From IMG/VR virus record IMGVR_UViG_3300031613_000001: DNA of 64,000 nucleotides; one strand, written 5' to 3'. This DNA comes from an uncultured virus (IMG/VR IMGVR_UViG_3300031613_000001) (lineage: Duplodnaviria > Heunggongvirae > Uroviricota > Caudoviricetes > Crassvirales). Within the stretch, counting starts at the first letter, position 1. Each line of letters opens with the position of its first letter. The notes below the pieces were generated by a model that had not been told where the DNA came from, ran no database searches, and saw only the letters and a list, made by a program, of their open reading frames with translations. The position numbers and the translations under genes are program-made. This document shows positions 3,001-56,174 of the stretch, in pieces.

Positions 3001-3673
3001 TTATATATGATTCCACTCTACTCATTTCAATGCCTAAAAAACTAACTGAAGTGTAATCATTGTCAATACCGCCACGCATAGTGGATGCAATCAATGTTCC
3101 ATTAACTGTTTGAGTTGTCTGTCCAGTTTTTTGCACTGAATTATCAGCCAATACGCCTTGAGTACTTGAAGCTACTCCTGTTAAATTAGAACCATCTCCT
3201 ATGATATTATTTACAGTTAAATCACCTGAAATTGTTTGAGATAGTGCACCTATTTTAACTACTTTATTATCTAATGCTGATTGTAATCCTGCAATATTTG
3301 CAATTCCTAATGATTCTAATTCTGTCTTATTTTGTTTTATAAAATCTACAATCTCTTGAAGTTCATCTAATGTCAAATCATCACTATTTAATAGATTTTG
3401 TATTGCTAATATTTTACTATTTAATACTTGTCCTTGTAATGCTGATAATGGTTTATCTACTATAGATGATGTTAATGTATTTATTACATCTAATGGTTGT
3501 AAAGCACTATTAGATAATGCTGAATTTTCATTTATTGCAGATACTAAATTTGTAGCAACAGTGTTTAAACCAGAAACATTACCTATTGGTGATCCTGAAA
3601 TAAATGTTCTCAGTGTTTTAAATTCTGTAGCTATTCTTGCTATTACACTTTGTATATTTGTTGCTAAACTCAT
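1..3673 (-). CDS. Tail fibre / receptor-binding protein, partial (runs off window start, >1220 aa)
   Basis: ATG at 3673 (MSLATNIQSVIARIATEFKTL...), frame open to position 1; Gly/Asn/Thr-rich; fibre motifs GNIGLGIT, NVGIKNTNPTEALDVTGNVKA, NLDNYTASGFY, WKKLWHSGN; repeated QGVLADNSVQK. Confidence 0.85.
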   Translation of the reverse strand, partial: MSLATNIQSVIARIATEFKTLRTFISGSPIGNVSGLNTVATNLVSAINENSALSNSALQPLDVINTLTSSIVDKPLSALQGQVLNSKILAIQNLLNSDDLTLDELQEIVDFIKQNKTELESLGIANIAGLQSALDNKVVKIGALSQTISGDLTVNNIIGDGSNLTGVASSTQGVLADNSVQKTGQTTQTVNGTLIASTMRGGIDNDYTSVSFLGIEMSRVESYIRPVTDLGGRLFIGKELRRFTNIDIYSNGVFSINENVIWHAGNDGVGSDLDAGLLGGQLPAFYAADSNVVKKTGETSQSIDGNLRTGSIYINEGNVALGDGLLLENVAGKLNWDGGQLVNSKYIASRGENLITNYSGLLGTNYNFSSFTFDGVEANSSPGSFRHTSASTEVISTDEFMAINASNRYRMSVDAKSLNGVGRYYMMTMAYDVDGIIISAIHHMYKANTATTLAVALNPGDTTVTLASNGANYNNTGTANVSPHLRSLIFWEYTNSLGYTYPVETYSRLYYPNQWDPGSISGNVITLRTPWAGPAYPVGSKLSNGNSGNSYKYNVLSNNTLTTNWVTYTGYMDGVDYSGTNVTNKFSPGTASIRMGWLMNFQGNASETIWFTNLFVGKDTRATDISSGVFNIDRIPTGTGGAVLDSDSRLSDIRIDPSKLPLTGGTLTGALRLKSSWSTSFLQSNSVYAESGINGFAFGLGTGVSSWFSKGGSTVNRAIDVWNDNSKIVLGSSGANVGIKNTNPTEALDVTGNVKAINFIGTLTGTASNANTLGDQLPDFYDFRNFGLGEQKVSTETNLDNYTASGFYLTPSSGLTNLPVGAINGRCLITVNGGVTYQSQFLVDSSGQTFTRKGQGVNFTPWLQHKDSGEFATEAQGVLADNSVQKSGAGQTVSANTSFTGILDIASNSSGNNGFRKIISFPSGGYARNVVQGINNISLDDPFNIGIFGNGTVYSYAYIGFNLSHASTNNMTISPSGNIGLGITVATEKIEVVGNVKATSFIGNVTGNLTGNANTTSKLLTTHQNIAVDLDDVPNGVIYNYDDVGHWANGPSGMSHGSVFSLGSNSNGSKGLSTQLAVDVNNNSSSAATKDFWFRTANNLGFSNDWKKLWHSGNLDTNDFLQNVVEDTSPQLGGNLLMNSNDITGTGNVNISGSAFFTKSEGMIGLIGDESFNTKYLQLRNGIGYGLRMGIQATDNIATGGAGLITSSKVIAFKSNTTTDFNSI

Positions 3674-5615: not shown

Positions 5616-6365
5616 TTATTCTTTTCTTTTATATAAATCTACAAAATTTCCAAGTGAATCGTATTTATAAGATAATTTAGATAATTCTACAGCCAGTCTG
5701 ACAATTTCAGAATGAATTTCTTTATTTAATTCTGACGTCTGTTCTAATGATTGACCATCAATACTTAAACCTGATGGTAAATTAGAAATTATAATTGGTT
5801 TTGGATACCTTAAATACCTCATTTGATACTCAAAGATTGAAAATTTAGATATTAATTCAACAATGTTCGTACCAGGTTCACTTGAATTGTAATCTAATCT
5901 CCAAACTTTTTTATCATTTGGTCTTTTAAATGGATTCTTTATTTGAGTATTATACTCATCATGTGTTTTTGGTATTACTCCTACAGTCTTATAAACTATA
6001 TTTTTTTGAATTTTACCAATAGAACATGGATCTATTATTTTAGCTGATTCTTGTTTTATTAAAAATACATTGTTTGGTATTTGAAATATTACAGAATTAT
6101 CAGAAAGTTTATAATTTTGATTAGATAAAGAATTAGTTGTTCTAAAATTAGTTATTAACTCTTTTAAATCAACTCTTCTTTTATCAGAACCTTCAAAACC
6201 TTCTAATTTAATATTACTTTTTGGATCATTATAATTTTTAATTAACTCTTCTTGAGCTAATGTTAATAATAAAGATAATTCATAATCATCAAAACCTGGA
6301 CTAGCCATTGAATTAATATTATTATATAGTAAATTAAAAGATTCTTTAAATTCTAATGTAGTCAT
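5616..6365 (-). CDS. Probable tail ring / head-tail connector protein
   Basis: 249 aa; YNNINS..SPGFDDYELSLLLT.AQEE and Y.MRYLRYPKPII...ELN.EIHSEIV.LAVE motifs of crAss ring proteins. Confidence 0.65.
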   Translation of the reverse strand: MTTLEFKESFNLLYNNINSMASPGFDDYELSLLLTLAQEELIKNYNDPKSNIKLEGFEGSDKRRVDLKELITNFRTTNSLSNQNYKLSDNSVIFQIPNNVFLIKQESAKIIDPCSIGKIQKNIVYKTVGVIPKTHDEYNTQIKNPFKRPNDKKVWRLDYNSSEPGTNIVELISKFSIFEYQMRYLRYPKPIIISNLPSGLSIDGQSLEQTSELNKEIHSEIVRLAVELSKLSYKYDSLGNFVDLYKRKE

Positions 6366-6370
6366 TATTA

Positions 6371-7231
6371 TTATTTACTTTTTTTTACTTTTTTTGTTTT
6401 TGCTTCAATAATATCTACTATTTCTTGATTTAAAGGATTAGAAAGATATCTAACTGCATTTTCAAATGTTGCAATTTCTCCTTCTACGCAAAGATCTAAA
6501 CCATCTGCTGTAGAATATCTACGATTTTTTCTAACTATTACTTCAGCATCTTCTGCATTAGATATTAGTAATTTAATTTCATAATTTACATCTCTGAGAA
6601 GTGATACAAATTGTTCAGGTTTATTTTCTATGATAGATTCTACTTGTCCTTGTAACCAAAGAATATCTGCTGTTTTAGATATTGCTTTATTTTCTACAAG
6701 TTTAACAATACTACGTAATGTTTCTTGTGAATCTTCAATTTTTGAATATAATTTAAATGCTTCTTTTTTAGTTGAAAACTGATTTCTTTTAACTTTACCT
6801 TCTTCTCCTTGTTCTATAATTACAAAATTATAATTAAGATCGTTATTAGCATTTTCTAATCCTACTACTATATGTTTAGTATTACTTAAAAGAATTTTAT
6901 AATCAATATAATCAACTGGATTAGTTAAATCTAAGTAGTTATCTCCTTTTCTTAAAGATACAGTTCTGGTTGCCCAAAAGTCAATATTTTTGTATACAGA
7001 TAATTCAATACCCATTGTTTTTTCAAGGTATTCTTTTTCATCGCTTGTAAGTACATTTTTAATTGTTTTTTGTCTTGTTAACGGTGTACAATACTTACGT
7101 GTTGATCCATTTAACATTCCACCTGATATAACGTGTTTATCATCAACGTTACTTGCCATTCCTGTTTTTCTTCGTATATAACGAACAATTACTTTTTTTT
7201 CTGGCAATTTAAAATTTAATTCTTCACTCAT
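6371..7231 (-). CDS. Conserved crAss-like protein next to MCP
   Basis: 286 aa; LDLTNPVDYIDYKILL motif; position directly after MCP. Confidence 0.6.
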   Translation of the reverse strand: MSEELNFKLPEKKVIVRYIRRKTGMASNVDDKHVISGGMLNGSTRKYCTPLTRQKTIKNVLTSDEKEYLEKTMGIELSVYKNIDFWATRTVSLRKGDNYLDLTNPVDYIDYKILLSNTKHIVVGLENANNDLNYNFVIIEQGEEGKVKRNQFSTKKEAFKLYSKIEDSQETLRSIVKLVENKAISKTADILWLQGQVESIIENKPEQFVSLLRDVNYEIKLLISNAEDAEVIVRKNRRYSTADGLDLCVEGEIATFENAVRYLSNPLNQEIVDIIEAKTKKVKKSK

Positions 7232-21139: not shown

Positions 21140-21397
21140 ATGAAAACTTTATTCGTATTATTACTGCTAGCAATAGCAGTACTATATCCAACGACTGAAG
21201 ATCTAACGATCGTGAAGTCAGAGATAACCACAAACAAACCGTTTGCTGGAACTATTAACAATAACCTTGTGGGTATTGACATCTCATGTGCATACTGGCT
21301 AAAACCAGACAGCATAGATGAAGTTACTACCTACAGGGTGACATCACCATTGCTACTTAAGTGGCTTGGTGCAATATATTCAACAGAGGTGCTATAA
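21140..21397 (+). CDS. Small secreted/membrane early protein
   Basis: 85 aa with signal-like N-terminus MKTLFVLLLLAIAV. Confidence 0.6.
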   Translation: MKTLFVLLLLAIAVLYPTTEDLTIVKSEITTNKPFAGTINNNLVGIDISCAYWLKPDSIDEVTTYRVTSPLLLKWLGAIYSTEVL

Positions 21398-23881: not shown

Positions 23882-24103
23882 ATGAACACAATAATAATAA
23901 CAATAAGTATCATACTATGGATTAGTTATGGTATATTTACATGCTATCAAAGAGTATTAGAAAGTATAGATGATAATGACGGTATAAATACTTTAGCTTT
24001 TAGTGATGTAGTAATAATATTAACATTAATAATAATAGCACCTTTATCATTAATATACAGAATTATAATAGGTATATTTAAAATCCCTAGAAAATGGTAT
24101 TAA
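23882..24103 (+). CDS. Small membrane protein
   Basis: 73 aa, two hydrophobic segments. Confidence 0.55.
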   Translation: MNTIIITISIILWISYGIFTCYQRVLESIDDNDGINTLAFSDVVIILTLIIIAPLSLIYRIIIGIFKIPRKWY

Positions 24104-24856
24104 TAGAAATTAGCGATAACGAACTATCAAAAGGATTAGATCAAGTTGGTAGTTCATTAAATAGTTTATTCATAATATTAGTAATGATAATAATAATTAT
24201 ACTGATAATAAACTATATGATAGAAAAAAAAGAAAAATAATAATAGATTATATTCATTTTGGTTGGTGGTTAATCAGAAAGGGCTAGTAAGAAACCGATT
24301 AAAGTTTCCCTAGCCCTTTTATAAATACCCCTTACCCTTCAAATATTATCTTATTAACAAAGACGAATGTAGAGGATGTCAACACTGTTGTAGCTTTTCG
24401 TTTTTATATTGCACAAAGCTACAATTAATATTTGACAATTCCTAGTAATTAACAAACTATTTTATATTATTTAACCATAAAATATATGATATAATAATAT
24501 AGAGTGTATTAAAAAACAATAGAATGAAATCATATACAATAAAAGAGATAGAAACAATGGTAGAAAACATGATGTCACACACTAATAATCTTGAAGATTT
24601 ACGTGATCATTTAATGTTTGAAGGTGATTTTCCTGACTATGCTAAATAATCTATCATAAAATAATAGAGTGTCTATTATTTAATCATAAACAATTAATAA
24701 TCAACAACATGAAAATAATGTGGACACTAATAATATTAGGTATAATAATATTTGTACTATCAGATAGAGATTAATATATTATTATATAATATACTCTATG
24801 ATAAAAAAATATAGTAGTATATCTTAAAAAAATAGAATCAATTAAATAATAATAGA

Positions 24857-25168
24857 ATGATAGATAAAAAAGAAAATCCAATAGTAATAATGGTATTAAT
24901 TATTTTTACTTTAGTGCTTTTTATAGGTACCGTTACATCATGTTCATCTAAAAAAGCATATTGTCCTAACTATAACTATAGTAAAATAGATAGATTTGTC
25001 TCTATAGACGAGTGTAAAGCAATAACATTTTCTAATGATACATTATACAATGTAAATAAAAATGTAGCATCTAAGATAGTTATAGGTAAGGATTATATCA
25101 TAGATATAAAAGTTAGACATGATACATATTGTAACATAGTTCAAAAAGATTTATTAAATATACATTAA
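24857..25168 (+). CDS. Putative lipoprotein
   Basis: Hydrophobic leader ending VTSC. Confidence 0.55.
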   Translation: MIDKKENPIVIMVLIIFTLVLFIGTVTSCSSKKAYCPNYNYSKIDRFVSIDECKAITFSNDTLYNVNKNVASKIVIGKDYIIDIKVRHDTYCNIVQKDLLNIH

Positions 25169-25451
25169 TTATGAAATTAATAATAGTTTCTTATTTTATA
25201 TACAATGGTATATTTAGATGTTTTCCAGAAATAGTAAATTTAAATTTTGATGTAAAAACAAGAATTGATTCTTTTAATAAGAAAAATGAATCTTTTGCAG
25301 ATAAATATAATTATATATCTAAATCTGCAAAAAACAAAAGAAACAAATACTAAAATAAAACGTTAAACCTATGACGTTGTGATTAAAAATTAAGGCTTTA
25401 ACAATGTATGGTAGATTGCCGTATGAATTAGCTACCATTAATCACTAAATA

Positions 25452-25475
25452 AAGATAGAATATAAATTGTAAAAT
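25452..25475 (+). repeat. 24-bp exact repeat AAGATAGAATATAAATTGTAAAAT (copy 2 at 25794-25817), candidate promoter
   Basis: Identical copies, each directly upstream of a structured non-coding segment. Confidence 0.7.
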
Positions 25476-25588
25476 TAAATATTACTCAGGAAGGGTGAGT
25501 CAATGGTTTCTCCTTAATTAATAAATTAAGTGATTCAAAAAGGGAAGTGACTTATATTTAAATTTTACATATTACATCTGTCAATTAC

Positions 25589-25625
25589 CTACATTCAACA
25601 GGTTGAAAAATGAGTGTAGTTTTTT
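25589..25625 (+). terminator. Terminator-like hairpin
   Basis: CTACATTCA...TGAGTGTAG followed by T6. Confidence 0.55.
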
Positions 25626-25819
25626 ATTAACTTAAATTATTGATAAATGGAAATAAAATGGGATAACGAATGTAAAAGATGTAGTACGGGATGTACACAT
25701 GATTATTGTCATGATTGTCAAATGTTAGGACATGACCCCAGTTTAAGTAATTATAACAAGAGAACTGAAACCGACTAGTTCTATAAATATTAGAAGATAG
25801 AATATAAATTGTAAAATCA

Positions 25820-26268
25820 TTAATTGTTGTGGCTCATTAGTGGGCTTCCTTGAAATTACATATTAAATCTTATCAAGTGTACCAACTGTATTGTAATATG
25901 TTGGTTGTGTATAAAGAGACACTAGTGCGTCACATCACTTTACACTACACTTAGGAGTTTACAGCAAGAGATATTAACGTAATAAATTAGATTAGAATTT
26001 ATAAAGCCTCTTAATACCTCGCGACCATTTATAATAGTGAAGACGGATGTCTTTTATGAGATTTACCTCTAGCAGCTATTATAGATGGTGCTAAACGCAA
26101 AGCGTGAAATCAGTAAAAATTGACTCATAGGTTTAATATAATCCCTAAAGAGGTGTAGTAGTGACTAAATTTAGAATAATATGTACTAAAAAGAAACATA
26201 CTAAAGGAAGAGCTGCAAGGGGATGAAACCTCGCTTATAAACATTAACTAATGGGCAGTTAGTTTTTT
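25820..26268 (+). ncRNA. Candidate large structured ncRNA (~440 nt)
   Basis: Six nested long-range helices from 25832/26256 inwards plus local hairpins; no credible ORF; ends in T-run. Confidence 0.6.
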
Positions 26269-26335
26269 ATTAATTAAACAATTTTATATTATGAGTAAAC
26301 AAGGAAAGATAGATTAACAAAATGTTAACATTAAC

Positions 26336-26784
26336 GGGGCTGACTGGTTTTGACCGCAATGTAAATATTAATAAACAGTAGTGAGTGATCACTTTAAATA
26401 TTGTAGATGAAATTTCTAAACGGAAATAAAATGAGTACGCAGGAAACTGCACAGGAAATGGCTAACATGAGTGTTGTTCACAACATTCTTAACGGATCTG
26501 ACGATCTAGTTGCACCAGTTGCAAAAGTTAAGTTAGCAATGGCAGCATAATGCCAACGGTGAAAAAAGCATTGTAGTAGCCATTATGTAGTAACTTATCA
26601 CAGAATGCTTGATATTCTGGTATGTCCAGATAGACCCGAAGTACATTAGTATAGTGAAGCTGTATGATAAGTTAATTTAATTTAGTATGAGTACCTAATG
26701 TAGAAGAAAACTATAAATTGAAAAACTGTATAATTTATTAATAATCAAATTGTTGGGACAGGGGTTCGACTCCCCTCAGCTCCA
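26336..26784 (+). ncRNA. ssrA: tmRNA
   Basis: 5' GGGGCTGACTGGTTTTGAC; 3' AGGGG-TTCGACT-CCCCT-CAGCTCC-A; G3:U70 alanine determinant; internal frame ending ...KLAMAA-TAA at 26550. Confidence 0.92.
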
Positions 26785-26907
26785 CAGACTTCGCCGTCTA
26801 AAAAGCTGTGCCAGCAGGATATCTGGCAAATATAACATCATCCAGAATTTTTAACACTTTTCTAGATTTGGGTAAGGTTATGTATAAAAGTGTACTATAT
26901 TGCAATT

Positions 26908-26944
26908 AAATAGAGTCTACAACTGTTTTGTAGGCTCTTATTTT
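26908..26944 (+). terminator. Terminator after tmRNA
   Basis: AGAGTCTACAA-CTGTT-TTGTAGGCTCT-TATTTT. Confidence 0.6.
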
Positions 26945-26959
26945 AAAACATAATATAAA

Positions 26960-27111
26960 TGCTTATTAGCTCAGTTAGGTAGAGCACTTGGAAAAGATAA
27001 CGCTACAAAATATATAGTAAAGAACTTTTTTACTAAAGTTGTTAATCTTTATATTTGTATAGATAATTTCTAAAATTCAGGATGTCACTGGTTCAAATCC
27101 AGTATAAGCAT
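26960..27111 (+). tRNA. tRNA-like gene with 85-nt insert replacing the anticodon loop; identity undetermined
   Basis: Acceptor TGCTTAT/ATAAGCA, D arm GCTC-AGTTAGGTA-GAGC, stem CTTGG/TCAGG, variable ATGTC, T arm ACTGG-TTCAAAT-CCAGT. Confidence 0.75.
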
Positions 27112-27152
27112 TTTTATATTAAAAATTAATTATTAACTTAAATTTTATAACC

Positions 27153-27344
27153 ATGAATCAATCAAATGTAGCCATTCAGGCGTATCAAAGAAAAGAAAGA
27201 GTAATTCGAGTATTTAAAATGAAATACATAGGTGATAGACCTACTTGTAAATCAGTAAGAGTTATTGCTAGCACATGTAGATTTAATAGATTAAATAACC
27301 GAATGAGAGCTGAATTAGTTTCTGATTTTGCTATATTTAAATAA
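27153..27344 (+). CDS. Small basic hypothetical protein
   Basis: 63-aa ORF with AT-rich leader. Confidence 0.5.
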   Translation: MNQSNVAIQAYQRKERVIRVFKMKYIGDRPTCKSVRVIASTCRFNRLNNRMRAELVSDFAIFK

Positions 27345-27354
27345 ATTTAAAATC

Positions 27355-27672
27355 ATGTTAGAAATGTATATTATTGGAAGTTGTATAATAATAATAATGA
27401 TATATAATATTTATTATTATAAAAAGTATATTATACAACCTAAATTAGAAGAAATATTAGCTGGTGGTATATATTCAGTAGTAAAAGTATCAGAAAATAA
27501 ATATTGTATAGTTAAAAATTTTTCTAAATATCAAGATCATACTGTTGTATTAGGACTTGATAATTATGAATGGTTTAAATGTAAATCAAATATGCTTACG
27601 GTAAACACAACTTATGTAAATTATTATGAAGCATTTGATAAAGCAAAAATATTAAATATGAAAAACAAATAA
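27355..27672 (+). CDS. Hypothetical membrane-anchored protein
   Basis: N-terminal hydrophobic helix; ATG at 27355. Confidence 0.5.
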   Translation: MLEMYIIGSCIIIIMIYNIYYYKKYIIQPKLEEILAGGIYSVVKVSENKYCIVKNFSKYQDHTVVLGLDNYEWFKCKSNMLTVNTTYVNYYEAFDKAKILNMKNK

Positions 27673-27697
27673 ATAAAATTAAATAAACAAAATCTTT

Positions 27698-27910
27698 AAT
27701 ATCGTTTCACTATGATAGAGACACGGTAGCTGTAACTACAACTTATCATAGCTTAAAGTAGACTCTAACCTTTGGTCTTTAAAACAATTGGTAAAGTGAC
27801 AATGCAAAACCATAATATCGGGATTTATCTATCTATCCCACTTCTCTAAACAGGTACATACCTGAAAGGTATTATGGTTAAGTATTGTTAATAAGTTTCA
27901 GATGGATATT
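27698..27910 (+). ncRNA. Candidate structured RNA (~210 nt)
   Basis: Helices 27710-27717/27744-27751, 27797-27805/27882-27890, 27808-27819/27868-27879 with two inner hairpins. Confidence 0.5.
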
Positions 27911-27917
27911 TTAAAAC

Positions 27918-27982
27918 AATTTGATGGTACTCATAAATGCTTTTACTCTGAACCATATACACAAAAAGAGTATTGTTTATAA
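27918..27982 (+). repeat. 65-bp direct repeat (copy 2 at 28577-28641, 3 mismatches)
   Basis: Duplicate of the 3' end of ORF 28369..28641; identity stops at the TAAC core. Confidence 0.9.
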
Positions 27983-28040
27983 CGGTTGGGCTATGTGTAG
28001 TGCCTTAAAAAAATACACTAACTTTTAAATAAAAACTAAA

Positions 28041-28253
28041 ATGAGTAAAGAGACACAAAACAACGAATTAAGTAATAACAAGGCATTACATATAGATAGT
28101 TTTAGCAACAGTACTCTCATTTACAATGCAATAAAAGAACAGACTAAAAGGAAAGTAGCTATAAGAAAAGGATGCCCAAACCAACAATGCTTTTGCACTG
28201 GTAAATGCCAAGAGATAATTGGATGGCGTGATAAGTTGCCAAATGAGTATTAG
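28041..28253 (+). CDS. Array ORF crossing an attC-like junction
   Basis: ATG inside hairpin A; KALHIDSFSNS is encoded by the right arm; Cys-rich body. Confidence 0.65.
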   Translation: MSKETQNNELSNNKALHIDSFSNSTLIYNAIKEQTKRKVAIRKGCPNQQCFCTGKCQEIIGWRDKLPNEY

Positions 28254-28368
28254 TATTGTTGCTAACGCTTGGGCTATGAATTGAAGCCCTAAACACAAAG
28301 TTCGATTCACAACAATAACCTTGACAGGGCTTTTATTTATAGCCTGTGTTATAAATTTTACGGAAATT

Positions 28369-28641
28369 ATGCGAGAAAGATTGCTAAACCCTAAAACATT
28401 GAACATAGAACTGGAAGCATTGCAAATCACAATTATAGATGGTGTTTCTTATAGAATATTTACTAAAAAATATACTTCTATTGATAACGGTAGTTGCCAA
28501 TGTTATAAAGATTGTAATTGCAGTAGTAAAAGAGGAACAATAACAAATACAGAAATAACTTGGTATAGAAATATTAAATTTGATAGTACTGATAAATGCT
28601 TTTACTCTGAACCATATACACAAAAAGAGTATTCTTTATAA
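28369..28641 (+). CDS. Array ORF, Cys-rich (start uncertain; frame open from within hairpin B)
   Basis: MRERLLNPK...CQCYKDCNC; stop coincides with TTTATAA core. Confidence 0.6.
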   Translation: MRERLLNPKTLNIELEALQITIIDGVSYRIFTKKYTSIDNGSCQCYKDCNCSSKRGTITNTEITWYRNIKFDSTDKCFYSEPYTQKEYSL

Positions 28642-28832
28642 TGTAAAGTATAACAATAGTAAAGGATTAATAAACTAAAATTAAATATTATGAAAGAAAG
28701 TGAGCCAATGAATTGGACTAAAAGACAAACACAGTATTATGGTGGATTTTTGGCGGTGTTAGGATTGCTAATTGAAATATTTGGAACGACGATAGTTATT
28801 GATGTTATACAGTGTTATCAAATCGTTTTTTT

Positions 28833-29027
28833 ATGTTTAGAATAACCAAAGTAGATAAAGGATGGATAGTTGAAATACTTGAATTTAAATACAATTTTTT
28901 AGGATTACATTTTTGCCAAGTTTGGAAACCTTATATTAAGACTTCGGGAATGGATGAATGTTGGGGACACCTTACAAAGGACTACGCAATCATGAACCTT
29001 ATAGACCAAGTTAAAAAAGACACTTAA
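28833..29027 (+). CDS. Array ORF, hypothetical
   Basis: MFRITKVDKGWIVE... begins just after GTTATCA core at 28814. Confidence 0.55.
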   Translation: MFRITKVDKGWIVEILEFKYNFLGLHFCQVWKPYIKTSGMDECWGHLTKDYAIMNLIDQVKKDT

Positions 29028-29069
29028 GGTATAAGGATTGATTTTTAACCGATTAAACAAATAAATATT

Positions 29070-29321
29070 ATGACAACACAAGAAAAATTAAACAATGTAT
29101 TAGGCTATTTAATAGCAATGTCTTTTGATAAGCCAGAATTAAGTAATGCCTTAGTAGAACCTCTAAACACTTTAAGTGAAGCAATAAGCGAGGTTGAAAA
29201 TTTGTCTTTATCTGGTGTTGTGAACTGTTTGTCCTGCGGTAAAAACCACGCTGAACTTTGTGGAAGCTGTGTATTTGATATTGCACAAGGAACAGCAGAA
29301 CAGGCAATAAGTAGCAGGTAA
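29070..29321 (+). CDS. Array ORF crossing an attC-like junction
   Basis: ATG inside hairpin D; VENLSLSGVVNC encoded by right arm with GTT=Val; CxxC...CxxC body. Confidence 0.65.
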   Translation: MTTQEKLNNVLGYLIAMSFDKPELSNALVEPLNTLSEAISEVENLSLSGVVNCLSCGKNHAELCGSCVFDIAQGTAEQAISSR

Positions 29322-29404
29322 ATTGTTTACAACGAACGAGATTAGAAATTAAAGAAATTGCAAGTAAAATAAAGTAATGAAAAAACTAATAGACATAAAA
29401 GCAA

Positions 29405-29698
29405 ATGAAGAATGATACAAAAATAGTAAATAATATAGATAGAATAAAACCAATTTTAAATATTCTTTCTACTGATGTAAAAAATATAATATTTGAAAAC
29501 GTAAGAGTATTTAAAGATAATCAAGTAGCAATGTTTGTTTTAGTTATAAGTTATTATCAATATGTACAACATTCAGATTTAATATACGACAAACAATCAA
29601 TAAAAGAATATATTATTAAAAAAAATATTCAAAATATATATGTTACATTAGACTCAGATGAAAAAAAACCCTATATTCAAATAATAATAAGCGTATAA
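29405..29698 (+). CDS. Hypothetical protein
   Basis: 97-aa ORF; IKPI.N.L motif shared with 29930..30250. Confidence 0.55.
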   Translation: MKNDTKIVNNIDRIKPILNILSTDVKNIIFENVRVFKDNQVAMFVLVISYYQYVQHSDLIYDKQSIKEYIIKKNIQNIYVTLDSDEKKPYIQIIISV

Positions 29699-29699
29699 T

Positions 29700-29927
29700 A
29701 TGGATATTTTAAAAGCATTATTAAAGGTTACATTTGATGGACCTAAAGAAGAAATTAACAAAGTAAACAAAAAACAACCTAGTAATTCTTCAACATCAAA
29801 TACATGTATTAATTGTGTTAATGTAGTAGAATTAAAATCATCACCCAATCTTTGGTGTTATTTAACTAGTGATGATGTAAATGAAAATTACAGTTGTCTT
29901 GATTTTGAAAAATCAAAAATAAATTAA
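29700..29927 (+). CDS. Small Cys-containing hypothetical protein
   Basis: CINC...WC...SC..F. Confidence 0.55.
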   Translation: MDILKALLKVTFDGPKEEINKVNKKQPSNSSTSNTCINCVNVVELKSSPNLWCYLTSDDVNENYSCLDFEKSKIN

Positions 29928-29929
29928 TT

Positions 29930-30250
29930 ATGACAAAAAAAATAAATAATAATAAAAATAAAAAAACTTTAGATGTAAACGTATCAACATTTATAAATAA
30001 TATTAAACCTATATTTAATTTATTAACAGGGTTTAATATAAATATGGATTCTGATACAAGTAAAGATTATACATATGCTTTAGTTTCATTTGAAGCTGAA
30101 AACAATAATAATAATAAAAGATTATTATCATCATTTATTGATAAATCTAGTTCTATTTTGGATAAAAATTTTGAAAATGTTTATACTTCAAAATATACTA
30201 AAGATGGTAAACTATTGGAAGCATCAATATACTATGATAAAGGACTTTAA
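29930..30250 (+). CDS. Hypothetical protein
   Basis: 106-aa ORF. Confidence 0.55.
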   Translation: MTKKINNNKNKKTLDVNVSTFINNIKPIFNLLTGFNINMDSDTSKDYTYALVSFEAENNNNNKRLLSSFIDKSSSILDKNFENVYTSKYTKDGKLLEASIYYDKGL

Positions 30251-30294
30251 ACTAAGGTTGTTAATTTTTTATTAGACTTTTTAAAAACAAAAAT

Positions 30295-30684
30295 ATGAAA
30301 GACAAAATAATTAGTTTTAAAACAGCTAAATTAGCTAAAGAAAAAGGGTTTGATATACCACAATTAAAAAGATATTTGTTAGATCAACATAATAATCATT
30401 GTCTTGCAAATAATAAAGGTTTACAAAATATAGGAATACAAGCACCAACACAATCTCTACTACAAAAATACTTAAGAGAAAAACATAATTTACATATTCA
30501 AGTACAAATAGGGGGGTATATAAATGGTAAAAATACAGCTTATTGTAATGTTTTTAAATTTGGTAAAACTTTATGGATTAGTAAATTTAGAAGTAAAACA
30601 TCTATATATACTTATGAAGAAGCTTTAGAAATAGGATTACAAGAAGCATTAAAATTAATAAAAAATGGAAAAAAAATGAAATAA
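30295..30684 (+). CDS. Hypothetical phage protein
   Basis: ISFKTAKLAKEKGF...APTQSLLQKYLRE.H...TYEEALEIGL. Confidence 0.7.
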   Translation: MKDKIISFKTAKLAKEKGFDIPQLKRYLLDQHNNHCLANNKGLQNIGIQAPTQSLLQKYLREKHNLHIQVQIGGYINGKNTAYCNVFKFGKTLWISKFRSKTSIYTYEEALEIGLQEALKLIKNGKKMK

Positions 30685-32602
30685 TAAAACTTACATATAT
30701 GATTTAGAAACATATAAAGATTTATTTCTTGCTACTTTTAAATGTATTGATACAAATGAATTTTGAAGATTTGAAATAAGTAAATATAAAACAGAAATTA
30801 AAAAACTGTATGAATTTCTTGAACAAAGAAATATAACTTTAATAGGTTATAACAATGTTAACTTTGATTATCCTGTATTACACAATACAATACTTAGACG
30901 TAAACGTAGATGAACATCAGAAGATATATATTATGAAGCTCAAAATATCATTGAAGCAGAGTATTCAGCTATATGGGATAGTGAAACAAAGATACCTCAG
31001 ATAGATTTATTTAGGATTAAGCACTATGATAACAAGGCACGTAGAACATCTCTTAAATGGCTTGAATATGCTATGAGAATGAATGATATTCGTGATTTAC
31101 CTTATCCACCAGGAGACTCTTTAACAAGAGAAATGATGGATGAGATAATATCTTATTGTGATCATGATGTTAATGCTACACATCTATTTTATAAGCTTTG
31201 TGAAAAGGATATAGAGCTTAGGTTGCAGTTATCAAAACAATATGGATTAAATCTTACTAATGCTAATGATCCTAAGATTGGTAGTGAGATCTTTTTAGAT
31301 TTATTATCTAAGGAAATGAATATTGATAAAAAGGAACTTAAAGAAAAGCGTACTTACAGAAAAAGAATTGATTTTAGTGAAATAATACTTGATTATATTA
31401 AGTTTGAAACACCTGAAATGAATAGCGTTCTTGATGGATTTAAAAGCTATAGAGCAATAGATACAAAGGGAGACTTTAAGTTTACTGGTAAAATTGGTAA
31501 TATATATAATGACTTTGGTCAAGGTGGTATTCACGGTTGTACTAAATCTGGTATTTATGAAAGTGATAGCAAAAAAGTTATTATAGATATTGACGTTGCA
31601 AGTTATTATCCTAATTTAGCTATTAACAATGGTTTTAGACCACAACATTTAGGAGATGCATTTAGTAAAATTTATAAAAGTATTTACGAGCTCAGGAAAA
31701 CATTTCCAAAATCAGATCCTCGTAATGCTGCATGTAAGTTAATGCTCAATGGTGCATTTGGTAAGATGAATGATGTTTATAGTTTTTTATATGATCCTAA
31801 GTGTTTATTAAGCATAACTCTTAACGGTCAGTTATTACTAGCAATGTTAATGGAAAAGATAAACAGTAACGTTAGTGATATTGAATTTCTTCAATCTAAT
31901 ACAGATGGTTTTACTTTTCTTATTGATAGAGATAAAGTAGAATATATGAAGAAGATAGTAACTGCATGGGAAAAGAAAACTGAACTTGTTATGGAGTATG
32001 CTATTTATGATAAAATGATTATACGTGATGTTAATAATTATATGAGTGTTACAGACACTGGTTATATTAAGTATAAAGGTTGTTTTGAAATGGATAGGGA
32101 CTATAATAAGAATCACAGTAAAAGGATTGTACCTATTGCTTTAGCTAACTACTTTATAAACAATGTAGATCCTGAATTTACATTATATAATCATTTAACT
32201 AAGTTTAAAAGTGATATAGTAAAATCTGATTATGAGTTTTGTAAAAACTATGGAATACACGACTTTTGTTTAGCCGTTAAAATGACAGGTCAAAACAAGC
32301 TTGTAAGAAGAATTGTAAAAGACTATCAACCAGAAGATCACAAGTTAGGTAAGGTAACAAGATATTATATTTCTAATGATGGTAATATGCTTGTTAAAAA
32401 ATTACCACCATTACCTGATAAAACACCTACTATGCAAATTAATATCTTTAATGAAGTTGATATGGGTGATAGAGAATCAAGTATAGAAGCTGGTTATGAT
32501 AGCACAGTTTTCAATAAATATTATGATAGTGATAATTATAATATTAATTATGACTATTATTTAAGAGAAATAAACAAAATTATTAACGTAATAAAAAATT
32601 AA
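30665..32602 (+). CDS. polB: Family B DNA polymerase, 645 aa if TGA=Trp (TGA at 30677, 30764, 30911)
   Basis: ExoI YIYDLET and ExoII GYNNVNFD lie upstream of the called ORF in the same frame; ExoIII YCDHDV; DVASYYP, KLMLNGAFGK, NTDG, YKG. Confidence 0.9.
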
Positions 32603-32767
32603 ATGAGCACTCAAATATGCCCACTTTGTTGTGGTAGTAAAAAGTACATGACACAGAAATCTACAGTTGAAAAAAATGGTTTAATTTACGTAGATTGTAA
32701 TACTTGTGATAATAATGGTTTAGTAGACTCAGATTTATTTATAGATGTTACAGATATGGATTATTAA
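32603..32767 (+). CDS. 54-aa zinc-finger protein
   Basis: CPLCCG...CNTCDNNG. Confidence 0.6.
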   Translation: MSTQICPLCCGSKKYMTQKSTVEKNGLIYVDCNTCDNNGLVDSDLFIDVTDMDY

Positions 32768-32796
32768 ATCTAAACAAAATTAATTAAAATATTAAA

Positions 32797-33384
32797 ATGA
32801 AATTATGAGATATAGAAAATTTATCATTTAACTTTAAAGACATAAAGTTACTAGATATAAATATTAACCAAATATTATGTATTATAAAAATATATTTAAG
32901 CTCAAACAAAATTTATTTTGATTATGATATAAGTAAACCTTATATAAATGATTTAATTAACAAAAACTATTTAATATCTGATTCTAAAGGTATATACCTT
33001 AGAGATAAAGGAAAAAAAGTTGTTAAAGTATTTGTTAAAATAAAAGAAGACAGTAGAAAAGAAGAAGAACTTGAAAATCAAGTTAAAAAGTATAGAACAT
33101 TATTTAAAGATATTAAAGTCGGATCAATGGGATCATCTATTTCTACTAAAAAAAAATTACAAAGGTTTATGGATAATAATCCTGAAATAACTTTTGAAGA
33201 AATCATTAATGCATCTGAAATGTATATAGATAGTTTTAATGATAGTTTTAAATATATAAAAAGAGCTGATTACTTTATATATAAACAAAATTATAAAGGT
33301 GAAGAAACATCTGACCTAGAAATATGGTTAGAACAATCCATGAAAGAACCTGAAAATTCAGATTGGAGAACAGAATTAATTTAA
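32797..33384 (+). CDS. Putative replication protein, 195 aa if TGA=Trp (TGA at 32806)
   Basis: ATG AAA TTA TGA GAT... in frame with ORF 33127..33384; YI..ADYFIYK motif. Confidence 0.65.
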
Positions 33385-36872: not shown

Positions 36873-37085
36873 ATGGCAAAAATAGATGTTGAATATCATA
36901 AACTATTACAAAAAATTAAAAATGAAAGATTTAAATATGAAGATCCTAATCGCAAAGGTGTATTTAGGTATCAGATACCAACTTACACGCTGGTACACAA
37001 TTTTACAGATGGTTTTCCCGCAATGACTACTAAAAAACTATTTTGGAAAGGAATTGTTGGGGAATTATTATGGTTTTTACGTGGT
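36873..37085 (+). CDS. thyA: Thymidylate synthase exon 1
   Basis: [25 protein letters not shown]. Confidence 0.9.
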
Positions 37086-37515
37086 GAATTATTGCCTAGT
37101 TAAGTAGGGATACTTAACCGTAATCTGTCTAAACAGGGAATCTCCTATTAATAGGACAATCCTGTACTAAATTTTATAATTTAAATCATTACAAAATTAT
37201 AAATAAATGTGCAACGACTAGCTCATAAAAGAGCGTACACAATAAGCTTATGATTGTGGAAACGGCAGAAACCTAGAACAGGTTAAGATATAGTCTAATC
37301 TATACAGTAATGTATAGCAGTTTAATTAATTAAAAATAAAAAACATGACAACTTATAAAATAATAGTATTAACAATTGGAAGTATAGGAATTATAGCAAT
37401 ATCATTAATGTTTATACTTATGGGAGATTGTGCTATTAATGATGATGATGATGATGATTGTGATGATTGTTAATTAAACGTATAAACAAGTTGCGTTGTT
37501 TATAGAATATAAATG
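37086..37515 (+). mobile_element. Group I intron in thyA (430 nt), no homing endonuclease
   Basis: Exon ends GGU pairing with GCC (U:G), terminal G; AAACAGGGAA 37131, AATCCTGTAC 37158, GCAACGACTAG 37211, AAGATATAGTC 37285; splicing restores LLWFLRG-DTNIKYL. Confidence 0.92.
37345..37473 (+). CDS. Intron-borne 42-aa peptide (TM helix plus acidic Cys tail)
   Basis: MTTYKIIVLTIGSIGIIAISLMFILMGDCAINDDDDDDCDDC, A-rich leader, looped out of stem GTTTAATTAA/TTAATTAAAC. Confidence 0.55.
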   Translation: MTTYKIIVLTIGSIGIIAISLMFILMGDCAINDDDDDDCDDC

Positions 37516-38382
37516 GATACTAATATTAAATATCTTGTAGATAATGGTATAAACATTTGGAATAAAGATGCTTATAATTATTTTAAATCACAATTAAGTG
37601 GTGAATGGTATGAGTTAAAAAATCTAACTTTAAAAGATTTTATTGAAGCTATAAAAAACAATGAAACTGGATATAATTTTGATAATTATGTGTTAGGTGA
37701 TTTAGGTAGAGTATATGGTGCTCAATGGAGAGATTGGCAATGTAAAGATAATTTTGGAGTAACTTGGTTTAAAGATCAAATATCTAATCTTATAAAAGGA
37801 TTAAAAGAAACACCTATGGGTACAAAACACATAGTTACTGCTTGGAATCCTGCAGAGTTAGATGATATGGCTTTACCTCCTTGTCATTGGAGTTTTGAAA
37901 TATTAGTTGAGCCTTTATCTAAAACTGAAATATTAATGAAATTGTATGAAGGTGTATCCTTTAGCGATATGAATTTTCAAAATCCAAATCCTAATAAAAA
38001 TGTACCTAGATATAAATTTACTTTAAAATGGCATCAACGTTCAGTGGACACATTTTTAGGTTTACCATTTAACATAGCTTCTTACGCCACTTTAGCACAC
38101 ATAATAGGTAAGATGACCAATATGGTTCCGAAAGCTATTATAGGTGATCTTAGCAATGTACATATCTATGAAAATCACTTGGATGCTGTTAAAGAACAGT
38201 TGTCTAGAGATCTTAATAAACATGGTAAATGTGAATTAAATATTAGTTCATTAGGATTAAATAATTTAGAGCATAATAAAATTAATACTTGTTTAGATAA
38301 TTTAAATATTGATAATTTTCAATTAGATAATTATAAATCTTATCCAGCAATTAAAGCAAAAATGTTAGCTTATGATAATTAA
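37516..38382 (+). CDS. thyA: Thymidylate synthase exon 2
   Basis: GDLGRVYGAQWR, MALPPCH, QRSVDTFLGLPFNIASY, HIYENH. Confidence 0.92.
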   Translation, partial: DTNIKYLVDNGINIWNKDAYNYFKSQLSGEWYELKNLTLKDFIEAIKNNETGYNFDNYVLGDLGRVYGAQWRDWQCKDNFGVTWFKDQISNLIKGLKETPMGTKHIVTAWNPAELDDMALPPCHWSFEILVEPLSKTEILMKLYEGVSFSDMNFQNPNPNKNVPRYKFTLKWHQRSVDTFLGLPFNIASYATLAHIIGKMTNMVPKAIIGDLSNVHIYENHLDAVKEQLSRDLNKHGKCELNISSLGLNNLEHNKINTCLDNLNIDNFQLDNYKSYPAIKAKMLAYDN

Positions 38383-54533: not shown

Positions 54534-56174
54534 ATGGAAAAAGAAAAAAGAGATAGATATTATTGGCTCAATGAAGAATCAAGAAAATTTCTTTCCCGTG
54601 GTTACTTAAGAGAGGGAGTAACTGCGGAACAAAGGATTAAAGATATTGCAAATCACGCAGAAAAAATACTAGGAATAAAAGAATGAGCTGAGAAATTTGA
54701 AAACTATATGGCTTTAGGTTATTATAGTTTATCAACTCCTGTATGGTGTAATTTTGGATATGAAAAAACTTTACCTATAAGTTGTTACGGATCTGACATT
54801 GATGATACAATGGATAGTATTCTAAATGGAGCAAGAGAAATAGGTATGATGTCTAAATATGGAGGTGGAACATCTATGTATTTAGGTAACATTAGAAAAC
54901 GTGGTTCGTCAATATCAGGTGGTGGAAATGCGGACGGACCTGTTCACTATGCAAAAATCTATGATACAATTATAGATAGATGTAAACAAGGTGAATCAAG
55001 AAGAGGAGCTTGTGCTTTATACTTACCAGTAGAGCATGAAGACATAATGGAGTTCCTTAAAATTGGTGACGAAGGAAATCCAATTCAGAATCTTCAATTT
55101 GGAGTTACAGTTACAGATGCATGGATGATGTCCATGAAAGAAGGTGATTCTGAAAAAAGAAAAATATGGGCTAAAATCATACAAAAACGTAAAGATTTTG
55201 GTTTTCCATATATTATGTTTAAAGACAATTCCAATAACAATAGTCCATACAAAGAATTAGGACTAGATATTAAAGCTAGTAATCTTTGTTCGGAAATACA
55301 GCTACCACAGGACAGTTACAACAGTTTTGTCTGTTGTTTAGGTAGTATCAATATACTTCATTGGAAAGATATTGAAAAGACTGATGCTGTAGAGACTTAT
55401 ATTCAATTCCTTAATGCAGTAATAGATGATTTTATCATAAAATCTGAGCACCTTCCTGGTATGAAGAGAGCTTGGAGATTTGCTAAAAACCATAGAGCCA
55501 TCGGGCTTGGCGTACTAGGTTGGCATTCATTTCTACAAAGTGAATTATTAGAAGTTGATAGTATAAAGGCTAAATATTGGAATAATGTAATATTTAAAGA
55601 AATAAACAAAAGATCACAAGAAGCAAGTAAATGGTGTCATGATTTTTTAGGAAAAAAATCTATACGAGAAGGATATGCTAATACAACGGTAATGGCAATT
55701 GCACCAACTAAAAGTTCATCATATATATTAGGACAGGTTAGTATGGGTATTGAACCAATAAAATCTAATTATTTCATAAAAGATTTGGCTAAAACCAAGT
55801 CAGTATATAAGAACGAAATGTTGAGAGCGCAACTCCAACAGTACAATCTTGATACACCAGAAATATGGAATAGTATTCTTGATAATGATGGTAGTGTTCA
55901 ACATTTAGATTTTCCTACAAAGGAAGTATTTAAATCATTTATTGAAATATTACCAAGAGAACTTGTATTACAAGCAGCACAAAGACAAAAATATATTGAT
56001 CAGTCACAATCATTAAATTTAATGATACACCCTTCAGTACCAGCAAAAGAAATAAATAAACTTTATATCTATGCTTGGGAATCAGGAGTAAAGACCTTGT
56101 ATTATCAATTTAGTCAAAGTGCAGCTCAAAGTTTTGCAAGAGAAATTAACGAGTGTGATTCGTGTCATAGTTAA
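54534..56174 (+). CDS. nrdA: Class I ribonucleotide reductase alpha subunit, 546 aa if TGA=Trp (TGA at 54684)
   Basis: YWLN..SR.FL.RGYL upstream of called ORF; PISC, SNLCSEI, APT, KTLYY, C-terminal CxxC. Confidence 0.9.

Follow-up and report, generated by a model that had tools for sequence, protein, structure and literature searches.

The locus analysed here occupies positions 27797-28642 of the window, the whole 64,000-nucleotide stretch of DNA from an uncultured crAss-like phage, and its features all lie on the plus strand. A repeat search showed that 27918-27982 (copy 1) and 28577-28641 (copy 2) match at 62 of 65 positions (95%) and form the largest direct repeat within 24000-33000. The sequence-only reading had reported this duplication as ending at a TAAC core, and the search returned the same coordinates and identity. 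Copy 2 comprises the final 21 codons and the stop codon of gene X, and each of the three differences between the copies changes the encoded amino acid in their common frame. Past TTTATAA(C/T)G the copies agree at only 8 of 21 positions, with copy 1 continuing into GGTTGGGCTATG and copy 2 into GTAAAGTATAAC. Within the 64 kb, TTGGGCTATG has exactly two occurrences, one at 27986 and the other at 28269, where it is the left arm of a large hairpin.

A plain local duplication, a chance repeat ending at a stop codon, or an assembly artefact would be the most trivial explanations, and the repeat is indeed short and its right end is also merely the end of an ORF. However, the identity is far above chance, copy 1 differs from the L013 allele at two positions and from copy 2 at three (that is, it is about equally close to both), and the same boundary recurs in ten sequence contexts. 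Independent records and contigs also carry both copies with their flanks. The whole repeat region was found at 100% identity in two further records, L002 (24000-29157) and L010 (25946-29129); G001 and L002 are identical fragments of one phage, the window's own, and add no variation. Contigs without any difference from metagenome runs X1 and X2 connect the copy 1 variants to unique flanks on both sides (records 1, 2, 17 and 18) and the 3' variant of copy 2 to its right flank (records 7 and 23); the runs possibly include the window's own source sample, and Logan contigs cannot cross the 42-nt identical core of the repeat. The duplication is real, and misassembly, which the sequence-only reading had named as the finding that would overturn it, is ruled out as far as contigs can show. 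We consider these trivial explanations extremely improbable.

Upstream of copy 1 is a hairpin (27797-27890) whose right end, ...AAGTATT|GTT, is like the right arms of the hairpin family described below and whose left core is a degenerate TGAC, not TAAC. It contains a perfect 10-bp inverted repeat, AACCATAATA/TATTATGGTT, at 27808-27879, and folding of the 110-nt segment 27791-27900 gives -33.8 kcal/mol, against a window mean of -14.0 (sd 5.3). Sequence reading and protein alignment revealed that copy 1 lies in a chimeric ORF of 26 codons (27902-27982; MDILKQFDGTHKCFYSEPYTQKEYCL and a stop codon). The ORF closes with the 21-codon tail of gene X, and its beginning resembles that of ORF 29700-29927, with 27895-27921 matching 29693-29719 at 81%, a weak similarity possibly due to chance. 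We read this ORF as the relic of an older X cassette. Its stop codon and the following C form the TAAC at 27980-27983, the putative AA|C junction between the X relic and the next unit, the Y cassette (27984-28266). The arms of the Y cassette (27990-28005 and 28080-28095) form 16 pairs, including two G.U; their match scores 24 where shuffles reach 25 and is, alone, not significant. ORF Y (28041-28253, 70 aa) has its start codon within the hairpin loop. The cassette is flanked by GTTTTAGCAAC at 28099-28109 on the 5' side and GTTGCTAAC at 28258-28266 on the 3' side, and in four runs the major allele at 28099-28109 is the canonical GTTAGCAAC. The same layout and flank type were seen at 6181-6494 of locus L004.

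The large hairpin, H0 (28264-28350, AAC...GTT, 87 nt), is an attC-like site that we assign to the X cassette. It folds at -34.6 kcal/mol as RNA (z -3.28), none of 200 shuffles being equally stable, and its length falls within the 84-90 nt class of the 243 array hairpins described below. The body of the X cassette (28348-28642) consists of a 5' flank, GTTATAAAT (consensus GTTATAAAC), ORF X (28369-28641) and a 3' flank with core, CTTTATAAT (consensus GTTTATAAC). ORF X encodes a Cys-rich protein of 90 aa with no match in Pfam or PHROG. In the window phage the X core AAC is mutated to AAT and the flank pair is likewise mutated; the contig allele at 28356 is C, the consensus base, in runs X2, X8 and X12. 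The window contains H0 and the two weaker hairpins within 600 nt, with no integrase in the 64 kb. The window's own sites are degenerate (TAAT, TGAC), and perfect GTT...AAC repeats show no enrichment there. Rfam returned only tmRNA, both at the gathering score in the window and at E<=1 within 24000-33000, and a structured RNA or intron reading of 27673-27917 was therefore dropped. The sequence AGTATTGTTNNTAA was rejected as a general signal: its three exact sites are all in this locus, and the overall count (45 against 41.7 expected) is at chance level.

Comparison with 25 related loci by blastn showed that L003, L004, L011-L014, L016 and L017 share only the X module with the window, and the 36 pairwise comparisons of nine loci were in agreement with this. 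Gene X was found in at least ten sequence contexts. When ten X tails were aligned (45 pairs), mean identity was 0.92 in the 20 nt ending at AAC and 0.50, 0.35 and 0.30 in the following 10-nt bins, falling base-sharply directly after (T/C)AAC. The population data branch at the same place. Half of the 24 contig loose ends listed lie 4 nt or less from TAAC at 27980-27983 or 28263-28266, among them ends at 27979, 27980 and 27984. These alignments and contigs bear out the earlier proposal of a crossover at the left end of the hairpin and indicate that TAAC there is a recombination junction. Such a junction would explain why the repeat ends at TAAC, and why X tails match up to the end of the cassette (TAAC/TAAT) and differ beyond it, where the next cassette differs. 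The flanks of X are mutually complementary, GTTATAAAC...GTTTATAAC in L004 and others and GTTGTGCGTA...TACGCACAAC in L030. Right arms for the half-hairpins 3' of X are clear only in L004 and L030 and borderline in L012 (28, with shuffles reaching 27), and those of the remaining loci did not score above shuffles. The depth of Y, H0 and X was 5-10x that of the backbone in runs X8 and X12. No excised or cassette-less form was seen and the contig layout contained no joints, Logan contigs being prone to lose rare variants and unable to cross the repeat.

Classical integrons keep attC with its upstream gene. The sequence-only reading had started from this premise and proposed that hairpin heads and gene bodies are independently exchangeable, with a second junction at GTT. 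We found H0 on the 5' side of X in the window, L004 and L011, where each time a different gene lies upstream and identity begins at AAC; L016, L017 and L030 have diverged versions of H0 in the corresponding place. In six loci, then, H0 has stayed attached to X, which speaks against independent exchange. Across GTT, pairwise identity merely rises from 0.77 to 0.92, so there is no step, and GTT 28348-28350 carries none of the 24 listed loose ends; a second junction there is not needed. Mapping breakpoints on X homologues, as the earlier reading had suggested, gave a base-sharp right end at AAC but no identity step at GTT.

Separate heads and bodies, with crossovers at both AAC and GTT (for example, if either strand of a near-symmetric hairpin were recombined), would nevertheless account for some observations. 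AAC and GTT are mutually complementary, which makes the sites near-symmetric. L004 6369-6483 and L012 3467-3581 have a body in common behind different hairpins, with breaks at T|GTTAGCAAC (the GTT end) and at the stop codon, not at AAC. The hairpin at L004 3070-3115 is chimeric, its left and right arms pairing poorly (-2.0 kcal/mol), and the flank pair GTTAGCATTA...TAATGCTAAC follows four different hairpins and encloses unrelated genes in L004, L011 and L013. Judging by the L004/L012 comparison, exchange at the GTT end may occasionally occur. An apparent head-only exchange between L011 and L013 was rejected, because translation showed different genes behind the common flank and two whole cassettes suffice. 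In L012-L014 the front of H0 is absent, with a breakpoint about 20 nt within the hairpin, at no core. Given the coupling of H0 to X, the smooth identity across GTT, and the segment and strand counts presented below, we regard separate heads and bodies as unlikely.

The X unit also occurs beside a recombinase. L004 is part of a 78-kb complete phage, G002, which is not crAss-like as judged by its capsid protein, and its hairpin and X unit sits within an array of about 12 units with gene-specific inverted flanks such as GTTGTGTGTAATAC...GTATTACACACAAC. Seven perfect inverted repeats of 10-14 bp were found in L004, and gene-specific inverted flanks of 9-14 bp abut GTT and AAC. The G002 array terminates in ...GCTAAC (AAC first), 42 nt 5' of a gene for a 269-aa tyrosine recombinase (L004 7770-8579). 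This protein matches PF00589 at 5.7e-39, and its NCBIfam scores (XerA 180, XerD 159, integron integrase 158 bits) are all below the cut-offs. The integron-integrase model TIGR02249 gave 157.7 bits against a cut-off of 265 and matched in two stretches, the IntI-specific insertion being absent. The layout of array and recombinase is common to 36 distinct viral loci, including that of G002. In these loci, perfect inverted-repeat units starting with GTT[AG] number 167 upstream of the recombinase and 6 downstream. The motif AAC-TAnnATATA adjoins the recombinase in 45 of 46 viral loci, compared with 33 of 230 control windows, and the junction lies 31-89 nt ahead of the start of the recombinase match. 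An initial hairpin scan by regular expression and folding was discarded as unspecific.

All evidence on polarity comes from genomes other than the window. Ten of 31 long shared segments start at the last AAC and extend into the recombinase gene, two run from AAC to AAC, and none runs from GTT to GTT. This census replaced one of short matches, in which hairpin-to-hairpin matches (AAC start, GTT end) dominate and which was uninformative on polarity. One cassette, 99.9% identical over 960 nt, has its AAC| end joined in L085 to the motif beside the recombinase and in L091 to a different hairpin. In 243 array hairpins, the better-folding strand was the gene- and recombinase-sense one in 195 cases and the opposite one in 40, an asymmetry that also argues against interchangeable hairpin strands. 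G.T pairs make up 464 of 7513 pairs on the gene- and recombinase-sense strand and 196 of 6896 on the other. RNA structure in the transcript could equally cause this bias. Genes are co-directional with the recombinase in L004 and in the 36 full-flank loci, and start codons lie within several hairpin loops.

Some of these features fit a reading in which no dedicated recombinase takes part: the hairpins would be conserved regulatory or RNA-processing elements lying between early genes, and ordinary homologous or microhomology recombination within them, of the kind proposed for the PeSL cassettes of T4-type phages, would produce the mosaic, with selection keeping junctions at gene ends. The start codons in loops and the G.U pairs favouring the transcript strand are in keeping with it. 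So is the window itself, in which no Pfam integrase was found among 64 ORFs scanned and no tblastn match to the L004 enzyme was obtained, as is the early region of the cultured relative phi14:2, which has no GTTA/GTTG...AAC units. At its left end copy 1 shows an ordinary breakpoint within a gene, and a group of remoter X genes, L022-L029 (about 50% identity to the window X), has mosaic borders near gene ends with no hairpin or TAAC. The available part of a phi14:2 transcription paper reports no common motif upstream of early transcripts (10.1101/2020.03.07.982082), which neither supports nor excludes a regulatory role of the hairpins. Against this reading stand the inverted flanks that are specific to each gene and abut both cores, the restriction of arrays to one side of the recombinase, the conserved motif after the last AAC, and the base-sharp identity step in 45 pairs. 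Moreover, sigma-70-like promoters are not enriched (9 against 12.8 expected, with a sigma-70-type consensus only, not one of Bacteroidota or phage type), and no plus-strand terminator was found at the hairpins or elsewhere in 27300-29300. We consider it quite unlikely that the locus arose without a dedicated recombinase.

The explanation that we find likely is that this crAss-like phage holds a short, partly decayed row of integron-like cassettes in its early-gene region, joined at AA|C, in which X and its upstream hairpin form one cassette and the 26-codon ORF is a relic left by deletion. On the gene-sense strand each cassette would run from C through an imperfect hairpin, GTT with a short flank, a small gene and the inverse flank to AA, and cassettes would be connected at AA|C. 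H0 and gene X (28267-28642) would then be a single cassette. An older X cassette upstream presumably lost its front by illegitimate deletion, leaving the relic at 27902-27982, which would still adjoin its original downstream neighbour, the Y cassette. A Xer/IntI-like tyrosine recombinase, supplied by a co-infecting phage or by the rest of the genome, would cut the folded sense strand at AA|C. Since the conserved recombinase-side sequence directly follows AAC in the recombinase-linked arrays, the simplest model would be a single crossover at AA|C of the gene-sense strand, equivalent to the classical G|TT on the other strand, with the hairpin belonging to the downstream gene. The AAC junctions and the better folding of the gene-sense strand would likewise fit one crossover at G|TT of the bottom strand. 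On this model, and contrary to the sequence-only reading, the locus would not be unlike an integron; standard integron logic would have seemed to fail because each hairpin goes with the gene that follows it and cleavage falls at AA|C.

Integrons consist of IntI, attI and cassettes bounded by attC, as the available texts describe them (Cury et al. 2016, PMC4889954; Ghaly et al. 2021, PMC8618304). Set beside those descriptions, the phage arrays are alike in their small, mostly single-gene units, in imperfect hairpins with ...AAC and GTT... cores and an unpaired spacer, in two core flanks that are complementary cassette by cassette (X in L004 and L030, and the L004 repeats), and in an array that abuts the 5' side of a Xer/IntI-clade tyrosine recombinase with a conserved site adjoining it. 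The better-folding recombinase-sense strand would correspond to the classical "bottom strand". In contrast, an integrase with the IntI-specific extra domain was found neither in the window nor in G002, whose 269-aa enzyme falls below the integron-integrase cut-off. The phage genes also point toward the recombinase (L004 and 36 loci) rather than being transcribed away from intI, from Pc; the hairpin is upstream of the gene and the junction reads AA|C; start codons often lie in the hairpin loop; and the carriers are phages. The window further differs in having no recombinase in view and decayed cores.

CALINs, attC clusters without an integrase, are described in virulent phages, including the Flavobacteriia phage Polaribacter P12002L, and the accessible text of that study contains none of the terms crAss, Cellulophaga, Bacteroid- and Flavobacter- (Qi et al. 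2023, PMC9892861). The window resembles them in carrying attC-like sites and cassettes in a lytic phage genome with no integrase nearby, but, as far as that text describes, CALIN sites are called by standard attC models (PMC9892861), whereas the window hairpins are candidate sites by their architecture. A further difference is the dedicated phage-borne recombinase family tied to arrays in related phages.

Three other systems bear comparison. Inverted integron integrases have the integrase gene flipped beside an otherwise classical array. Members of that group, such as those of Treponema, share with the phage arrays the common direction of recombinase and cassette genes, as the available text indicates (Cury et al. 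2016, PMC4889954). The phage array, however, is on the 5' side of the recombinase, and it is the genes that are reversed, not the sites. In pdif modules of Acinetobacter plasmids, XerC/D sites, which are duplex 28-bp sites with no long hairpin, flank gene modules. There, as here, alternately oriented Xer-type sites bound small exchangeable modules, but the phage inter-gene elements are hairpins of 46, 87 or 122 nt whose stems covary and which show a strand bias. In the PeSL cassettes of T4-type phages, an early promoter is coupled to a terminator-like stem-loop, and the mechanism is homologous recombination. They too show conserved stem-loops between small early genes, gene shuffling and a hyperplastic phage region; the window hairpins differ in lacking a promoter or terminator signal, in their core-specific junctions, and in the linked recombinase of related phages.

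At least 211 relatives of the recombinase were found in IMG/VR, and the closest bacterial relatives are 40-52% identical, with one partial match at 64%. The bacterial relatives have no arrays (15 chance-level upstream units in the 66 loci examined of 80 fetched), and the docking motif occurs in none of the 66 loci, counted with a regular expression and window slightly unlike those of the viral loci; on this count the platform would have been invented by phages or have been in their possession for a long time. The chances seem to us evenly balanced that low-GC phages own an integron-like platform, comprising a small Xer-like recombinase that lacks the IntI insertion, a docking site (AAC-TAnnATATA) and arrays of hairpin-first cassettes, that trades across unrelated phage families, with crAss-like phages as recipients that keep decaying fossils. 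A description of this phage cassette family was not found in the literature, of which our coverage is incomplete.

Phage mosaicism at gene borders is usually explained by rare illegitimate recombination and selection. In the present case, a small early gene has its borders at a single base in ten contexts, and dozens of viral contigs link this family of sites to a recombinase gene. The process appears to be integron-like recombination read from the other strand. This gives a testable polarity rule, namely that the hairpin goes with the downstream gene and the sense strand is cut at AA|C, and surveys built on IntI and the classical orientation may overlook this phage family. The pattern suggests that phages, the abundant crAss-like group among them, may use site-specific cassette exchange to trade small early genes, whose probable role is in host takeover or counter-defence.

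The 65-bp duplication noticed in the sequence-only reading was recovered as the largest direct repeat within 24000-33000, with 62 of 65 positions identical between 27918-27982 (copy 1) and 28577-28641 (copy 2). The similarity ends, as described there, at TTTATAA(C/T)G; by sequence reading, 8 of the 21 following bases agree. Misassembly was refuted, for two database loci (L002 and L010) contain the entire stretch at 100% identity. Mismatch-free contigs from the salt-lake metagenome runs X1 and X2 joined the private variants of copy 1 to both its unique flanks and the 3' variant of copy 2 to its right flank; the 42-nt identical core is unbridgeable by Logan contigs, and X1 and X2 may include the source sample. 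Copy 2 is the final 21 codons and stop of gene X (28369-28641), a Cys-rich gene of 90 codons without a Pfam or PHROG match. Copy 1 lies in frame within a 26-codon ORF (27902-27982), whose first five codons, MDILK, weakly resemble the start of ORF 29700-29927 (81% over 27 nt). All three differences between the copies alter the amino acid, and at the two residues where the X relatives agree on G and on C, respectively, instead of the S of copy 2, copy 1 has the relatives' residue. Therefore, copy 1 is no recent duplicate of copy 2.

Searches with X returned 23 metagenome loci and four viral ones, two of which are distinct once the window phage's own locus and a fragment at a contig edge are set aside. 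What the window has in common with L003, L004, L011-L014, L016 and L017 is confined to X and some tens of surrounding bases, and X-only sharing was repeated in 36 pairwise comparisons among nine loci. Ten X tails, those of the two copies and of eight loci, were aligned at the C of (T/C)AAC; over their 45 pairs, identity averaged 0.92 in the last 20 nt ending at AAC, 0.50 at +1 to +10, 0.35 at +11 to +20 and 0.30 at +21 to +30. Thus, the repeat stops on its right where the X module generally stops, and the proposal of a junction at the AAC core, the left end of the hairpin, holds, with breakpoints mapping to one base in all ten tails. The sequence after X in four loci resembles that after copy 1, not that after copy 2, with matches to the window extending to 28070 (L013), 28049 (L016), 28035 (L003) and 27995 (L011), indicating that copy 1 occupies the X position of the relatives, before a Y-type neighbour. 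Borders are also shaped by selection for intact genes: in L022-L029, a more distant group of X with about 50% identity to the window X, they fall near the gene ends, without any hairpins.

The hairpin upstream of X, H0 (28264-28350, AAC...GTT), is an imperfect hairpin of 87 nt (-34.6 kcal/mol as RNA, z -3.3). In L004 and L011, too, it stands before X, each time after a different upstream gene and with identity from AAC onward, and a diverged yet recognisable form is found before X in L016, L017 and L030. At GTT, the other proposed junction, there is no identity step (0.77 before versus 0.92 after; 21 pairs). Because H0 is kept with X and no step occurs at GTT, the hairpin belongs to the downstream gene. 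This is the opposite of what had been assumed from classical integrons, in which attC goes with the upstream gene, and it removes the paradox of duplicates that do not share a hairpin. Of the suggestion that hairpins and bodies exchange independently at both ends, the AAC junction survives and the two-ended exchange does not, there being neither a step at GTT nor a listed loose contig end at 28348-28350.

Loose contig ends in four runs mark branch points of other contexts. Among the 24 listed of 39 rows, 12 fall within 4 nt of one of two TAACs (27980-27983, 28263-28266). A further eight fall in the loop and start of the Y cassette (28016 or 28051), two at 29031, one at 27971 and one 6 nt beyond the TAAT of 28639-28642, whereas GTT 28348-28350 has none of the listed ends. 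The depth of Y, H0 and X was 5-10x that of the phage backbone in runs X8 and X12, and they are therefore carried by other, more abundant genomes in the samples. In X1 and X2, depth over 29031-29300 was about tenfold above the backbone. Other left-hand contexts, which end in ...TAACGTATTAG, meet the window at 29031, and 29157 and 29196 are the ends of two IMG/VR fragments of the window phage. Gene 29070-29321 is probably a further cassette that many genomes share.

L004 belongs to a complete phage of 78 kb with direct terminal repeats (G002), whose capsid protein places it outside the crAss-like group. In it, H0 and X form one unit of an array of about twelve, whose genes are each enclosed by a gene-specific inverted repeat abutting GTT and AAC (GTTAGGCAC...GTGCCTAAC, GTTGTGTGTAATAC...GTATTACACACAAC, GTTATCTTTA...TAAAGATAAC, GTTGTAAGTA...TACTTACAAC); the pair around X is GTTATAAAC...GTTTATAAC, and in L030 GTTGTGCGTA...TACGCACAAC. 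Eight of 39 listed perfect repeats of at least 10 bp run from GTT to AAC, and seven of these bound array units; the eighth (GTTTTTTTGC) does not and was read as chance. A tyrosine recombinase of 269 aa (L004 7770-8579, array-gene strand) starts 42 bases after the last AAC of the array. It matches PF00589 at 5.7e-39 and, below the cut-offs in every case, the NCBIfam models of XerA (180 bits), XerD (159) and the integron integrase (158, in two stretches). DNA methyltransferase-like genes, with DPPY and DPPF motifs in their translations, occur among the cassettes (L004 6645-7364, L011 about 2657-3140); Qi et al. 2023 (PMC9892861) likewise note such genes in phage attC clusters.

IMG/VR holds at least 211 relatives of this recombinase, of which 80 loci (L036-L115) were kept. 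The Xer-like family (269 aa) occurs on contigs of 5-360 kb, with a co-directional cassette array 5' of it and an AAC-TAnnATATA junction. Perfect 10-mer inverted-repeat units starting with GTT[AG] numbered 167 upstream versus 6 downstream of the recombinase in 36 distinct full-flank loci, G002 included, and the AAC-TAnnATATA motif lay 31-89 nt ahead of the recombinase match start in 45 of 46 loci versus 33 of 230 control windows. Ten of 31 long segments shared between loci run from the last AAC into the recombinase gene, two from AAC to AAC and one from AAC to GTT; one ends at AAC, 17 fit neither pattern, and none runs from GTT to GTT. One cassette, 99.9% identical between two loci over 960 nt, has its AAC| joined in L085 to the recombinase-side motif and in L091 to the hairpin of a different cassette. 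The strand in gene and recombinase sense was better folded in 195 of 243 inter-gene hairpins and the opposite strand in 40, a bias that could be a property of the RNA; G.T pairs made up 464/7513 in sense versus 196/6896 on the other strand. By length the hairpins cluster tightly at about 46, 84-90 and 121-125 nt, with peaks at the last two. Among 66 examined of 80 fetched bacterial loci of the closest enzyme relatives (40-52% identity, one partial match 64%), a slightly different regex found 15 upstream units, which is chance level, and no docking motif. Two of them, L135 and L139, have five and seven GTT-start units downstream, not upstream, of the recombinase relative, possibly representing a related system with another geometry.

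In the proposed mechanism, the array, once flipped to point its recombinase leftward, would have the recombinase, docking site, cassettes ending in a hairpin and G|TT cut of a classical integron, the sole geometric difference being the reversed direction of its genes. Read along the gene-sense strand, the hairpin would come first and the gene second, with the cut at AA|C, and this strand would presumably fold and be exchanged, like the attC 'bottom strand'. This polarity evidence comes entirely from genomes other than the window. Other observations pull the other way: a body that L004 and L012 have in common has its two breaks at T|GTTAGCAAC and its own stop codon, one L004 hairpin is a chimera with arms that do not pair, unrelated genes are enclosed by the same flank type, and in L012-L014 the front of H0 is missing, with homology stopping about 20 nt inside the hairpin. 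Therefore, exchange by another route, at or inside the hairpin, does happen. ORFs starting in hairpin loops (L013 about 918-975, L004 4721-4891, L012 3325-3488) read across the right arm and GTT, and the hydrophobic stretch common to L013 and L004 (YTLLALV, YTLLSLV) is therefore dictated by the DNA site.

The window is crAss-like by its major capsid protein, which shares 73% identity with the Cellulophaga phage phi14:2 protein, and its portal, terminase and capsid match PHROGs at E 1e-123 to 1e-182. Its early region holds a complete tmRNA gene (26336-26787, +; RF00023, 53.8 bits; ARAGORN tag peptide AKVKLAMAA); a transcription study of phi14:2 (10.1101/2020.03.07.982082) found its early transcripts to have no upstream motif in common. 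The strongest local fold (21263-21337, +; -44.2 kcal/mol per 110-nt window; mean -14.0, sd 5.3) lies inside ORF 21140-21397, just within the divergent early region. Several core genes appear split or truncated: thymidylate synthase is two ORFs (36873-37103 and 37513-38382; Pfam positions 2-66 and 66-265) with about 410 nt between, the PolB ORF (31073-32602) covers PHROG positions 183-652 only, and the match of the RNR large subunit (54708-56174) begins at profile position 254. The phi14:2 PolB annotation is a join of two pieces. No intron family was found in the window at the Rfam gathering score.

Three consecutive units can be recognised in the window. The first (27797-27983) consists of a degenerate hairpin (left core TGAC) followed by a chimeric relic that closes with the X tail and has its TAAC intact. 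Position 27918, where the repeat starts, would be an ordinary mid-gene deletion endpoint, and the deletion that made the relic may have been guided by ATTTGATGGT, a 10-nt stretch identical in ORF 29700 and ancestral X. The second, the Y cassette (27984-28266; arms 27990-28005 and 28080-28095), has the Y start codon in the hairpin loop, as in L004 6181-6494 and L012; its flanks in the window are GTTTTAGCAAC and GTTGCTAAC, and the major allele at the 5' flank is the canonical GTTAGCAAC in all four runs. In the third, H0 with X (28267-28642), mutation has turned the core into AAT and the 5' flank into GTTATAAAT; the contig allele of this flank in X2, X8 and X12 retains the C.

According to Qi et al. 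2023 (PMC9892861), whose text mentions neither crAss-like phages nor Bacteroidota, temperate phages can carry integrons and virulent ones attC clusters; Bacteroidota are listed among integron-carrying phyla by Ghaly et al. 2021 (PMC8618304). In the main texts searched, we found no description of a recombinase-linked phage array of this type. The window has no recombinase (64 ORFs against Pfam; tblastn with the L004 enzyme), nor an excess of perfect flank repeats. Taken together, it is likely that the AAC-end junction of integron-like cassettes stands and that exchange at both ends does not, and we read the window phage as a recipient with fossil cassettes.
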